Assembly (NCBI GenBank): GCA_963753745.1 | Contig: CAVWDX010000011.1 | Span: forward strand, 81,071 to 145,070 | DNA: 64,000 nucleotides | Origin: an uncultured Acidobacteriota bacterium | GTDB taxonomy: Bacteria > Acidobacteriota > Terriglobia > Acidiferrales > UBA7541 | Direction: 5' to 3' | Part shown: piece by piece, positions 52,247 to 55,779 of the stretch | How positions within the stretch are numbered: position 1 is the first letter of the stretch | Layout of the letters: each line of letters opens with the position of its first letter | Notes under the pieces: model-generated | Told to the model about the DNA's origin: nothing | Database searches by the model: none | The model's input: the letters and a program-made list of their open reading frames with translations, nothing else | Translations under genes and position numbers: made by a program

Positions 52247-52454
52247 AGCGTCGCTCCTGCCCGTTCGATGCAAGGTGAGGTAAATCCGGCACGGAAGGAA
52301 AAGGCGAGCGGGACGTTCGGGCGCCGGATTCCAGTAGGGCTATTTCCTCGCCGGAAATGCAGAGAGGTTCTTCCTCGCTACGCTCGTCAGGACAGATTTC
52401 CTCGTCGGAAATCTGGTTAACGATAATTGACCCCTCCCCCTGGGGTTTTTTCGT

Positions 52455-52538: not shown

Positions 52539-52873
52539 GGGAGTTGCGGCGAATATTATGGGACGCGGAAAATTGTTGTGGGAAACGAGTGGGCGGGGTG
52601 CGGGCAGCGAGGAGTGTGGCGACGAGAACATGGGGAAGGATACCATGGATTCTCATTACTGTCAAGGACTATTATTGAGTGTATATCATTCGAACGTGAG
52701 ACGGGAAACTGGAGTGGTTTGAAGCGGTTGGCGGGAATTTGGGAGTTTGGTGAGACGGTGGAAAAGTCAAAAGCCCCACATATAAAAACGATACATGGGG
52801 CACCCGATTATTAGCGCTCTGGTTGCTTTTGCATGAAACTGAGGACCGACCGCTACATAATCGACGAAAAGAA

Positions 52874-52930
52874 AAAAGCAGATCCCTTCCGACAGGGTCG
52901 GAACCTTCGGTCGCTGCGCTCGGGATGACA
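52874..52930 (+). repeat. dispersed repeat AAAAGCAGATCCC...TCGCTGCGCTCGGGATGACA
   Basis: 54/57 identical to 19229-19285; internal TCCGAC-N3-GTCGGA hairpin. Confidence 0.9.
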
Positions 52931-52962
52931 CTGGGGTCGACTGGGGGAAGAGATCGCGGGTA

Positions 52963-53070
52963 TAAAAAAGAGGAGGCGGACCAGGTCGTTCCGCCTCCTT
53001 GTGTCCCCTTTCGGGGATGTCCGGCCAGCCTGACGGAGGGCGGCTGGCCGGTCGTGTGTTGGCCTACCTA
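52963..53070 (-). ncRNA. candidate structured small RNA (three hairpins, the last an intrinsic terminator), divergent from rnr
   Basis: Minus strand: CCGGCCAGCC-GCCCUCCGUCA-GGCUGGCCGG; ACA-UCCCC-GAAA-GGGGA-CAC; AGGAGGCGGA-N9-UCCGCCUCCU-CUUUUUU. 5' end approximate. Confidence 0.55.
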
Positions 53071-53166
53071 TTAATCCCGGTTGGACGAAAAAAGTTCCTG
53101 TAAAAATGAAAAAAAGTGACAGAATCTTTGTGAAAGAGTAGTGCCGCGCCGGGGTGCATCCAGCTT

Positions 53167-55779
53167 ATGCCACGCCCATCCTCGTTGAGTCCAGATAACA
53201 TATTGCGTTTTCTGCAGGTTACGAAAGGGGAGGTGTCTGCGAACGAGATCGCGGCGGGGCTACACCTGAGAAAGGCGGAGCGCAAAGCTCTGTTTAAGAT
53301 GCTGGTTTCTTTGAGGAAGCGGGGGGCGATTGAGGAGCTGCCAGGGGGACGGTACCACCTGGCGGGCAGAAAAGTGGGGGAGCAGCCGGGAGGCATGGGA
53401 GCTCGCTCGAGCGGGCAGGGGTCTGAAGAGGCTGGAGCGGCAGGGCGGAATATGCCGGAGACTGGGCGCTCGGCACAAAGTTCCACGGGGAACGTTCGGG
53501 GGCAGGCGGTTGGTCCTGCGACAGCGCGAGATGAAGTGCGGGGACGGCTGGTGTTGCATCACGACGGATACGGATTTGTGGTGCCGGATGTGCCGATGCC
53601 GCAGCTCGATGGAGACGTGTTTATTCCGCGAGACGCTGTGGAAGACGCGATGCACGGAGACCGAGTGGTGGCGAGGCTGCAGCGCGTCAGTGAGTCTCGC
53701 GGCGGAGCGCGAGGCGGGCAGCGGGCGGAAGGGCGAATCGTGCGCGTGCTGGGGCGGGCGCATCCGTCGGTGGTTGGGTTGTTTCGTTATGGGCCGCGCG
53801 GGAACGTGGTGATGCCTTATGACGTTCGAATGCAGCATGAGGTGGAAATTCCTCCTGGTGAGGAATTGACTTCGGCGCTGCGAGAGAAATTGGGTTTGAG
53901 CGTTGCTCGAGGGCAAGGGGCGCGCGGAGGGAGGCTACCGGAACTCGATGGAGCAGTGGTGAACGTGGAGCTGCTGCGTTATCCGCGGGGCGGAGCGGCG
54001 CCTACGGGACGGGTGATCGAAATCTTGGGGCGACCCGGCGAACTCGGGGTGGATACCGAGATCATCATTCGCAAGCATCATTTGCCACACGAATTTTCCG
54101 GCGCGGTTTTGAGGGAAGCAGAACAGCGGGCCGCAGCGGTGAGCGAAGCGGAACGCGCAGGTCGCGACGATTTTCGGCATTTGCCGATTGTGACGATTGA
54201 TGGAGAGACAGCGCGGGATTTTGACGACGCCGTTTACGTGGAGCGGCGGGCGGATGGCGGCTGGGGCTTGCAGGTGCACATCGCGGACGTGGCGCACTAC
54301 GTTCGAACGGGAACGGCGCTGGATCAAGAAGCGCGATTGCGTGGGACTTCGGTGTATTTCCCGGACCGCGCGGTGCCGATGCTGCCGGAGGCGCTTTCGA
54401 ATGGGATGTGCTCGCTGAAGCCGCGCGAGGAGCGGCTGGTGATGAGCGCGCTGATGGAGTTTGACGCGGCGGGGAAGATGCTGAGCGCGCACATGACGCC
54501 GGGAGTGATTCGTTCGGCGGAGCGGATGACGTATACCGACGTGAATAAAGTGATAGAAGGCGACAGGGAAGCTAACGTGCGGTACGCGGGGCTGGCTAGG
54601 CATTTTCGCGATATGAAAGAGCTGGCACTTCTGCTGAATGCGCGGCGCAATGAGCACGGCTCGATCGATTTCGATTTGCCGGAGCCGGTGATCGAATTTG
54701 ACGAACAACAACAGATGACCAATATCGTGCGGAGCGAGCGGAACATCGCGCACCGTTTGATTGAAGAATTTATGCTGGCGGCGAATCGCGCGGTGGACGG
54801 GTACCTGTTGAAGCGCGGGATAGCGGCGCTGCACCGCGTGCACGAAAAACCGGATGCGAGGAAAGTTCTGGAGTTTGAAGAGTTGGCGCGGGCGTTTGGA
54901 TATTCGCTCGGCGTGGCGGATTTACACCAGCGGGAAATTGCGGTGCGACATGGGCGCGTGCCTGCGCCGACAAAGGCGGGGCGGCCGGATTCTTACGGAC
55001 ACGGGCGCGAACGCGGGATGCGCGTGGCGCTGCCTGGTTCCACGGAGCTGCGGATTACGCCGCAGCATTACCAGAGGCTATTGCGCAAATTGGCCGGCAA
55101 GCCTGAAGAGCGCATCGTTTCTTACTTGATGCTGCGCTCGCTGAAGCAGGCGCGCTACGCCGCGGAGCCACTCGGGCATTTCGCGCTGGGATTCGACGAG
55201 TACACGCATTTCACCTCGCCGATACGGCGCTATCCGGACCTGATCGTTCATCGCGTGCTGAAGTGGGCCTTGGAGCATCCGCAAGCTGCCGAGCCCGCGG
55301 CAAGCCATGCGTCACGCGGCGTGGAGGCGACGCTATATCCGGAAACGGAGCTGGAGGAGATCGCGACGGAAACTTCGGAGGCGGAACGCAGAGCCAACGG
55401 TGCCGAGCGTGAATTGATGGACTGGAAGACGGCGCAGTTCATGGAAGCGCATCTGGGCGAGGAATACGAAGGACTGATCATTTCGGTTCAGAAGTATGGG
55501 TGTTTTGTCGAGCTGTTCGAAGTGTTCGTCGAGGGATTGCTGCCCATCAATGCGCTCGAGGACGTTGCAGGGGCGCGATGTGTTTTTCGGGAACGCGATC
55601 ACGCCATTGTCGCGCTGTCGGGGGGCGAAGGGCGGCGGGGTGCGCCTGGAGCGCGGCGTGGGCGAGGAGCAAAACCCAAGGAGCTGGCCTGGCATTTGGG
55701 CGACCGCGTACACGTGCGAGCCGAGCGCATCGATCCGATGCGCCGACGGGTTGAGTTTGCGATTGCAGAGGTCGCATAG
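53167..55779 (+). CDS. rnr: ribonuclease R
   Basis: N-terminal HTH, HHDGYGFV cold-shock domain, VTIDGETARDFDDA, VHIADVAHYV, IEEFMLAAN, YTHFTSPIRRYPDL, S1 domain. Confidence 0.95.
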   Translation: MPRPSSLSPDNILRFLQVTKGEVSANEIAAGLHLRKAERKALFKMLVSLRKRGAIEELPGGRYHLAGRKVGEQPGGMGARSSGQGSEEAGAAGRNMPETGRSAQSSTGNVRGQAVGPATARDEVRGRLVLHHDGYGFVVPDVPMPQLDGDVFIPRDAVEDAMHGDRVVARLQRVSESRGGARGGQRAEGRIVRVLGRAHPSVVGLFRYGPRGNVVMPYDVRMQHEVEIPPGEELTSALREKLGLSVARGQGARGGRLPELDGAVVNVELLRYPRGGAAPTGRVIEILGRPGELGVDTEIIIRKHHLPHEFSGAVLREAEQRAAAVSEAERAGRDDFRHLPIVTIDGETARDFDDAVYVERRADGGWGLQVHIADVAHYVRTGTALDQEARLRGTSVYFPDRAVPMLPEALSNGMCSLKPREERLVMSALMEFDAAGKMLSAHMTPGVIRSAERMTYTDVNKVIEGDREANVRYAGLARHFRDMKELALLLNARRNEHGSIDFDLPEPVIEFDEQQQMTNIVRSERNIAHRLIEEFMLAANRAVDGYLLKRGIAALHRVHEKPDARKVLEFEELARAFGYSLGVADLHQREIAVRHGRVPAPTKAGRPDSYGHGRERGMRVALPGSTELRITPQHYQRLLRKLAGKPEERIVSYLMLRSLKQARYAAEPLGHFALGFDEYTHFTSPIRRYPDLIVHRVLKWALEHPQAAEPAASHASRGVEATLYPETELEEIATETSEAERRANGAERELMDWKTAQFMEAHLGEEYEGLIISVQKYGCFVELFEVFVEGLLPINALEDVAGARCVFRERDHAIVALSGGEGRRGAPGARRGRGAKPKELAWHLGDRVHVRAERIDPMRRRVEFAIAEVA

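Follow-up and report, generated by a model that had tools for sequence, protein, structure and literature searches.

A predicted ECF sigma-dependent small RNA with an anti-Shine-Dalgarno loop, divergent from rnr, in one uncultured family of Acidobacteriota

The minus strand upstream of the RNase R gene (rnr), within the window, that is, the whole stretch of 64,000 nucleotides of acidobacterial DNA that was analysed, carries what is very probably a real structured small RNA (sRNA) gene. The predicted RNA (52964..53067, minus strand) is about 100-104 nt long, its 5' end being placed from the promoter and its 3' end from the U tract, and it represents, judged from sequence comparisons, a new sRNA family limited to one uncultured Acidobacteriota family (Terriglobia; Ca. 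Acidiferrum/Acidoferrum MAGs, subdivision 2). The promoter motif that precedes it is found also ahead of a conserved gene for an extracytoplasmic function (ECF) sigma factor, on which the sRNA probably depends. The reading that we favour, with moderate confidence as a complete chain, is that of an ECF-dependent, trans-acting, anti-Shine-Dalgarno sRNA that represses mRNAs.

Acidobacteriota are among the most abundant soil phyla, and to our knowledge almost nothing has been learned about RNA-based regulation in them. We know of no cultured member of the Acidiferrum/Acidoferrum lineage, which is represented by MAGs only, and a literature search for sRNAs of this lineage returned none. The sRNA family is now defined by a covariance model, a structure and boundaries, and a probable regulator can be named, a conserved operon encoding an ECF sigma factor, a zf-HC2 anti-sigma factor and a DUF3106 protein. 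The predicted core regulon is tiny, consisting of the sigma operon itself, a DUF1800 protein and the sRNA, and a complete stress circuit thus becomes testable in a heterologous host; the sRNA may also serve as a marker with which soil metatranscriptomes can be mined for ECF sigma activity. A known principle, the ECF-dependent sRNA with a C-rich seed, would in this way be extended to a new phylum, and not overturned.

Structure of the element

A sequence-only reading of this DNA had described a minus-strand element of three hairpins, and its stems, loops, ACA/CAC flanks and coordinates are all reproduced by the sequence and by RNAfold, which folds the minus strand from 53065 to 52964 into exactly these hairpins after a free 5' tail of 14 nt. 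The minimum free energy is -53.3 kcal/mol; dinucleotide shuffles average -35.3 (sd 3.4), none of 200 being as stable (z = -5.3), while the plus-strand fold is less exceptional (z = -3.3) and is not followed by a U tract. Read along the minus strand, the tail AGGCCAACACACGA precedes hairpin 1 (CCGGCCAGCC-GCCCUCCGUCA-GGCUGGCCGG), which is joined by ACA to hairpin 2 (UCCCC-GAAA-GGGGA); after CACA follow the third hairpin (AGGAGGCGGA-ACGACCUGG-UCCGCCUCCU) and CUUUUUU.

Two segments are predicted to be accessible. The single-stranded 5' tail AGGCCAACACACGA (53052..53065, minus strand), a candidate seed, has a predicted mean unpaired probability of 0.88 and is near-invariant in 34 genus-level sequences; its consensus in the family is AGG(C/U)CAACACA, and the tail core CCAACA is kept in sibling paralogues. 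The other is the loop of hairpin 1 (53021..53051, minus strand), whose perfect 10-bp stem is formed by a 5' arm CCGGCCAGCC at 53051-53042 and a 3' arm GGCUGGCCGG at 53030-53021. The 11-nt loop GCCCUCCGUCA (53041-53031; predicted unpaired probability 0.85) contains CCUCC and is complementary to GGAGG Shine-Dalgarno sequences. Within the genus it reads GCCCUCCGUCA or ACCCUCCGUCA and elsewhere (C/U)(A/U/C)CCUCCG(U/A)C, with CCUCCG(U/A)C as consensus; the anti-Shine-Dalgarno loop to which the sequence-only reading had drawn attention is the best-conserved unpaired element, CUCC being kept in 47/48 homologues.

Hairpin 2 (53004..53017, minus strand; 53020-53001 with its flanks, ACA-UCCCC-GAAA-GGGGA-CAC) is a variable and dispensable module, which shows some compensatory changes and is missing in the shorter paralogues and in two genera. 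The third hairpin is an intrinsic terminator (52964..52999, minus strand) with a perfect, GC-rich 10-bp stem, made of the arms AGGAGGCGGA (52999-52990) and UCCGCCUCCU (52980-52971), and the loop ACGACCUGG (52989-52981), followed by C and six U residues (U6, 52969-52964). It was missed by a generic terminator scan because its 9-nt loop exceeds the limit of 8 set in that scan. Conservation across the family is highest in the terminator, both in its stem core GGAGGCGG/CCGCCUCC and in its loop GACCUGG (GGAGGCGG-nnnGACCUGG-nCCGCCUCC). A pseudoknot between the tail and the terminator loop (AGGUC:GACCU) was considered and rejected; it is possible in some genera, is mismatched in the genus of the window and is without covariation.

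No conserved open reading frame is found in the element. On the minus strand no start-like codon begins before the final U of the 3' U tract, and ATG, GTG and TTG are all absent from 24/48 homologues; a small-protein gene is very unlikely as an explanation for the element.

Conservation, covariation and strand

The element is single-copy in its own genome and was found by blastn in 34/36 other genomes of the genus with 75-94% identity; two genomes of the genus have lost it, and since some genomes of the genus do without it the RNA must be dispensable. When 34 distinct genus sequences are aligned, variation is concentrated in the stems and almost absent from the 5' tail, loop 1 and the terminator loop; 97% of cells form standard pairs, and double (compensatory) changes are seen at 13/26 pairs. 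The observed values were reached in 0/500 column shuffles, and pairing fell to 36-58% when the partners were slid. Family-wide (48 sequences), compensatory changes are seen at 20/26 pairs, including 10/10 pairs of hairpin 1 (97.7% of cells paired) and 6/10 pairs of the terminator stem (98% of cells paired), and the same three hairpins are recovered by RNAalifold. The alignment contains 51 G-U/U-G cells as opposed to 14 A-C/C-A cells, and the minus strand is therefore the RNA strand. The plus strand as the functional strand, whether as the rnr 5' UTR or as a plus-strand terminator, was rejected on these counts, on the restriction of the U tract to the minus strand and on the conserved minus-strand promoter.

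Two covariance models, R1 and the broader R2, both match 53065-52964 with 113-120 bits. With R1 the RNA was found in 137/301 genomes of the family and in 22/29 of its genera. With R2 the matches are confined to the one family, both among 251 genomes of the order and among 301 genomes (131 genera) of the class. In the genera where the model fails (L260, L262, L263) the region upstream of rnr keeps the promoter, with a hairpin that has diverged but still has a loop of the CCUCC type, and a terminator. In outgroup families the region upstream of rnr contains nothing comparable to the sRNA. Contigs with the conserved terminator module are overwhelmingly labelled as Candidatus Acidoferrum/Acidiferrum, Acidiferrales or 'Acidobacteria gp2' MAGs.

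Several apparent occurrences elsewhere were discarded. Pattern matches in Bifidobacterium and Planctomycetota lie inside coding sequence and are due to chance. Copies under the labels Eisenbacteria, Dormiibacterota, Verrucomicrobiia, Methylomirabilota and Limnocylindria are near-identical and full-length, and were attributed to mislabelled or mis-binned contigs. The loci with a wrong phylum label (L107, L112, L122, L136, L139, L143, L167, L168) carry the full-length sRNA at >100 bits, and two of their contigs are placed by GTDB in the genus of the window, their NCBI labels looking wrong or the contigs being mis-binned.

Shorter sibling copies were observed in some genomes, G190 (six sites on contig C1), G371, G218, G334 and G036, and at loci L042, L045, L046 and L272-L282. 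They consist of the tail, a hairpin 1 with a CCCUCCGUCA loop and the terminator, do not contain hairpin 2, and lie away from rnr behind a related upstream motif, GTAAC-N18-GTC; up to six copies occur per genome.

The rnr locus

The divergent neighbour, rnr (53167..55779, plus strand), encodes RNase R, a protein of 870 aa with the Pfam domains RNB (1e-108), CSD2, OB_RNB and S1. It occupies this position in 46/49 homologous loci, and in one genus a homologue is found without rnr nearby. As the sequence-only reading had noticed, no gene separates the element from the divergent rnr start; between the element and position 53167 there is no ORF with family support. This interval contains a -10-like box of rnr, CAGAAT (53120..53125, plus strand), for which a promoter function is inferred; it reads TAGAAT or TACAAT in relatives, is conserved in most homologous loci and appears on the sRNA strand as (g)ATTCTA or cATTGTAc. 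It lies about 35-45 bp from the -35 of the sRNA, a back-to-back layout that is kept across the family.

On the other side, beyond the terminator, neither the sequence nor the genes are conserved from one genus to another, and convergent genes are frequent; the nearest supported gene past the terminator in the window is encoded on the plus strand and has its own terminator-like site at 52429-52447. The lack of conservation of this downstream flank indicates that the element is not a leader. That it is an independent minus-strand small RNA, as had been proposed from the sequence, is supported jointly by this variable flank, the compensatory changes, the strand-specific G-U pairs and a promoter at a fixed distance.

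Promoter and ECF sigma factor

The sequence GGAACT, pointed out in the sequence-only reading near 53093-53098 as a possible ECF-type -35, is present at 53098-53093 on the minus strand, and the guess is supported, a conserved ECF sigma gene having the same motif in its promoter. The -35 element GGAAC (53094..53098, minus strand), which is G[GC]AAC in the family with a T-run next to it, is found at a fixed position in all homologues. The -10 element GGGATT (53073..53078, minus strand; GGGTT/GTGTT in the family) lies 17 nt past AAC. The AAC-N17-G(T/A)T spacing is conserved, the version in the window being GGAAC-N17-GAT, and the distance from the end of the -10 to the conserved 5' end of the RNA (AGGCC) is 8-10 nt in 50/53 loci. 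Such a -35/-10 spacing is the architecture of ECF sigma promoters. The sRNA promoter of the family can be written as GCAACTTT-N12-G[GT]GTT.

The genome contains 29 genes with a sigma-70 region 2, and the motif is found upstream of only one of them. This gene (G000 C17:87923-88516, minus strand) encodes an ECF sigma factor of 198 aa and is followed by the genes for a zf-HC2 membrane anti-sigma factor and then a DUF3106 protein. The sigma factor has a single orthologue, with 64-88% identity, in 27/29 genera, and GCAACTTT-N13-G[GT]GTT stands about 20 nt ahead of the ATG in 30/30 of the orthologues fetched (27 genera); the region of the ribosome-binding site, TGTGGAGG(T/C)CATG, is likewise invariant in 30 genomes from 27 genera. 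The presence of the motif ahead of its own operon suggests that this operon is presumably autoregulated.

A position weight matrix (PWM) built solely from the ECF sigma-gene promoters was applied to the sRNA promoters. Outside the genus of the window, 18/23 loci scored at least 12 bits and 14/23 at least 16 bits, the background on both strands of this genome (10 Mb) being 34 and 10 positions at these respective thresholds. The sRNA promoter of the window, at 9.2 bits, is a weaker variant, yet a score this high is found at just 97 of the 9.96 million positions in the genome. Ten family genomes together contain 31 instances of the exact pattern GCAACTTT-N12-GKGTT (1-5 per genome) and 3 of a reversed control; the instances include the sigma promoter in 7/7 genomes for which its location has been established and, in 5/10 genomes, the promoter of the sRNA. 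In the genus of the window the -35 is no longer GCAAC but has become G[GAT]AAC; a different ECF sigma factor is therefore possible there, and might act on the promoter in that genus.

A third recurrent member of the motif-bearing set is an exported DUF1800 protein of about 640-690 aa, which is preceded by the same ECF motif in at least four genera (G000 C17:9035, minus strand; G071 C1:591627; G083 C1:53534; G072 C1:418867). Other high-scoring sites in G000 lie ahead of an S41/PDZ protease (C11:256615) and of several signal-peptide proteins, and the distribution of the motif suggests a small regulon in which exported proteins are prominent and to whose core the sRNA belongs. A further high-scoring site, outside the window at G000 C11:360638 (plus strand), is followed by TAGGTAGG, as at the start of the sRNA, and by a leader of about 120 nt ahead of a glycine-rich secreted protein; this leader may be a further structured 5' region belonging to the regulon.

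Relation to known RNA families

At gathering thresholds, a cmscan search of the whole window against Rfam 15 yielded one tRNA and nothing else, and the same search on 10 homologous loci yielded no match. When the threshold was relaxed to E <= 10 over 52600-53250, nothing better than E = 0.2 was obtained, the hits being miRNA and unrelated sRNA models far below their cut-offs. The sequence-only reading had offered the Acidobacteria motifs Acido-1 and Acido-Lenti-1 as possible homes for the element, a suggestion that has to be abandoned; these are likewise structured RNA motifs of unknown function, and neither covariance model matches the element or its homologues, even at the relaxed threshold for the window. 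Riboswitch families gave no match in Rfam either.

The element has the promoter, terminator, intergenic site, covariation and absence of a conserved ORF that generally characterise trans-encoded sRNAs, and its promoter motif is common to the 30/30 orthologous promoters of one ECF sigma gene, as is expected of an ECF-dependent sRNA. The enterobacterial sigmaE-dependent sRNAs MicA, RybB and MicL (PMC4102768) offer one comparison. Like them, the RNA described here is short, with an ECF sigma promoter, an intrinsic terminator and a conserved unpaired 5' end, and it would presumably supply the repression in an envelope-stress regulon that otherwise consists of exported proteins; unlike them, it belongs with another sigma group and another phylum and adds an anti-Shine-Dalgarno hairpin loop, and there is no homology in sequence or structure. 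GsrN of Caulobacter, which is sigmaT/EcfG-dependent, is processed, binds G-rich mRNA leaders through an exposed C-rich 5' loop and activates katG (PMC5869019). It shares with the present RNA an ECF-type promoter and a C-rich loop exposed on a 5' hairpin, and both would be post-transcriptional effectors of a stress sigma regulon; the sequences are unrelated, and the GCAAC-N17-GTT promoter and zf-HC2 anti-sigma factor found here contrast with the PhyR-NepR-EcfG system.

The alphaproteobacterial cuckoo/CcsR (RSs0680) family (PMC4615179, PMC8034643) comprises RNAs with 2-4 adjacent hairpins, each with a CCUCCUCCC loop, in a preserved neighbourhood of their own (PMC4615179). An anti-Shine-Dalgarno CCUCC hairpin loop, compensatory stem variation and sibling copies in some genomes are common to both families. 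Membership of the cuckoo family was nevertheless rejected, as CCUCC is found only in hairpin 1, the loops of hairpins 2 and 3 being GAAA and ACGACCUGG; a distinct 5' tail, rnr as neighbour and the failure to match Rfam also set the present RNA apart.

Proposed mechanism and alternative explanations

It is proposed that the ECF sigma factor would be freed from its membrane zf-HC2 anti-sigma factor, probably by an envelope or extracytoplasmic signal. Since the promoter motif is that of the ECF sigma operon, the sRNA would be made on release of that sigma factor; its transcription would begin a few nt upstream of AGGCC and end at the terminator (52999-52964). In the RNA the 5' tail AGGCCAACACA and the loop CCUCCGUC, both invariant and unpaired, would be exposed, and the CCUCC of the loop, the tail or both would pair with the ribosome-binding regions of mRNAs, with initiation being blocked or decay triggered, by which the sigma regulon would gain a repressing arm. 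Whether the sRNA acts by pairing with Shine-Dalgarno regions is, in our estimate, evenly balanced.

Perfect 10-mer complements of the 5' tail number only 33 genome-wide and none stands out as a target, and the ranking of Shine-Dalgarno sites by loop-1 pairing is noisy, being dominated by generic GGAGG sequences and spurious ORFs. The best perfect site, UGACGGAGGG, precedes a CheA-like gene and lies in the apparent end of the upstream coding region; this candidate was rejected, the site being conserved within the genus only and kept in a genome without the sRNA. The rnr mRNA was likewise rejected as a direct pairing target, the duplex energies of the rnr 5' region being no better than those of shuffled sequences.

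As to a protein partner, an Hfq-related protein of 112 aa is encoded at G000 C20:447938-448081 (minus strand) and was detected by profile search (PF21979 Hfq_1, 33.4 bits), its score with the classical Hfq model, 24.5-25.1 bits, being under the cut-off; tblastn of the genome for E. coli-type Hfq, CsrA and ProQ found none. The Hfq-related protein is a possible chaperone for the sRNA, and it could help by binding the terminator and U tail. The conservation of the terminator stem-loop runs against the anti-Shine-Dalgarno seed model, which does not account for it, and the conserved terminator might serve to bind a protein or offer a further site for pairing.

One alternative is an RNA that would bind a specific protein, through the terminator hairpin (GGAGGCGG/CCGCCUCC, loop GACCUGG) and/or the CA-rich tail, and that would act on RNase R, the Hfq-related protein or some other RNA-binding factor by titration or recruitment instead of pairing with mRNA. 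The sequence of the terminator stem-loop is conserved beyond the needs of pairing and is retained where hairpin 1 has changed, the linkage to rnr is kept (46/49 loci), and the searches with the seed and at Shine-Dalgarno sites produced no convincing mRNA target. Known sponge RNAs carry many copies of their motif, whereas each motif occurs here once per RNA; moreover, no CsrA or ProQ homologue was detected, and the CCUCC loop and the 5' tail show the pattern of a seed, invariant, unpaired and flanked by covarying stems. We regard such a sponge as unlikely. It is still less likely, and decidedly speculative, that the RNA ties the envelope-stress sigma factor to global RNA metabolism, either as a mimic of the 16S 3' end, whose loop CACCUCC/CCCUCC could occupy Shine-Dalgarno sites across the genome in competition with ribosomes and act, under stress, as a brake on translation, or as a partner or guide of RNase R, for which the invariant terminator stem-loop GGAGGCGG-GACCUGG-CCGCCUCC could be the recognition module.

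Divergent transcription from the ECF promoter might tune RNase R in cis by promoter competition, supercoiling or polymerase occupancy, with the RNA itself being secondary, and the maintenance of the back-to-back layout with the conserved rnr -10-like box would fit such a device; the complementarity between the sRNA and the rnr 5' region, no better than shuffled, means that any link to rnr would not operate by pairing. The strong selection on the secondary structure and on the unpaired sequences of the RNA speaks against it, as do the paralogues that lie away from rnr in some genomes and the genus with a homologue and no rnr nearby, and we consider a cis device very improbable. Least credible of all, to the point of being largely refuted, is a 5' leader, riboswitch or attenuator with regulated termination at the third hairpin for a downstream minus-strand gene. 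The CCUCC of loop 1 could in principle pair with GGAGG in the 5' arm of the terminator as an anti-terminator, and 170 nt downstream there is another terminator-like hairpin; the variation of the downstream sequence and genes between genera, often with convergent genes, the opposite strand of the next supported gene on that side in the window and the lack of matches to riboswitch families all argue against it.

Neighbouring sequence

The second terminator-like hairpin (GCCCCATGTATCGTTTTTATATGTGGGGC + TTTTGACTTT; 52773-52801, minus strand), about 170 nt downstream of the sRNA, lies in a stretch of some 500 bp that contains no supported gene and has promoter-like sites at 52665-52637 and beyond; this stretch might hold another small transcript. 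Just past the sRNA terminator, at 52874-52930, a 57-nt repeat, AAAAGCAGATCCCTTCCGACAGGGTCGGAACCTTCGGTCGCTGCGCTCGGGATGACA (plus strand), was found, of which blastn-short detected 8 copies in the genome.
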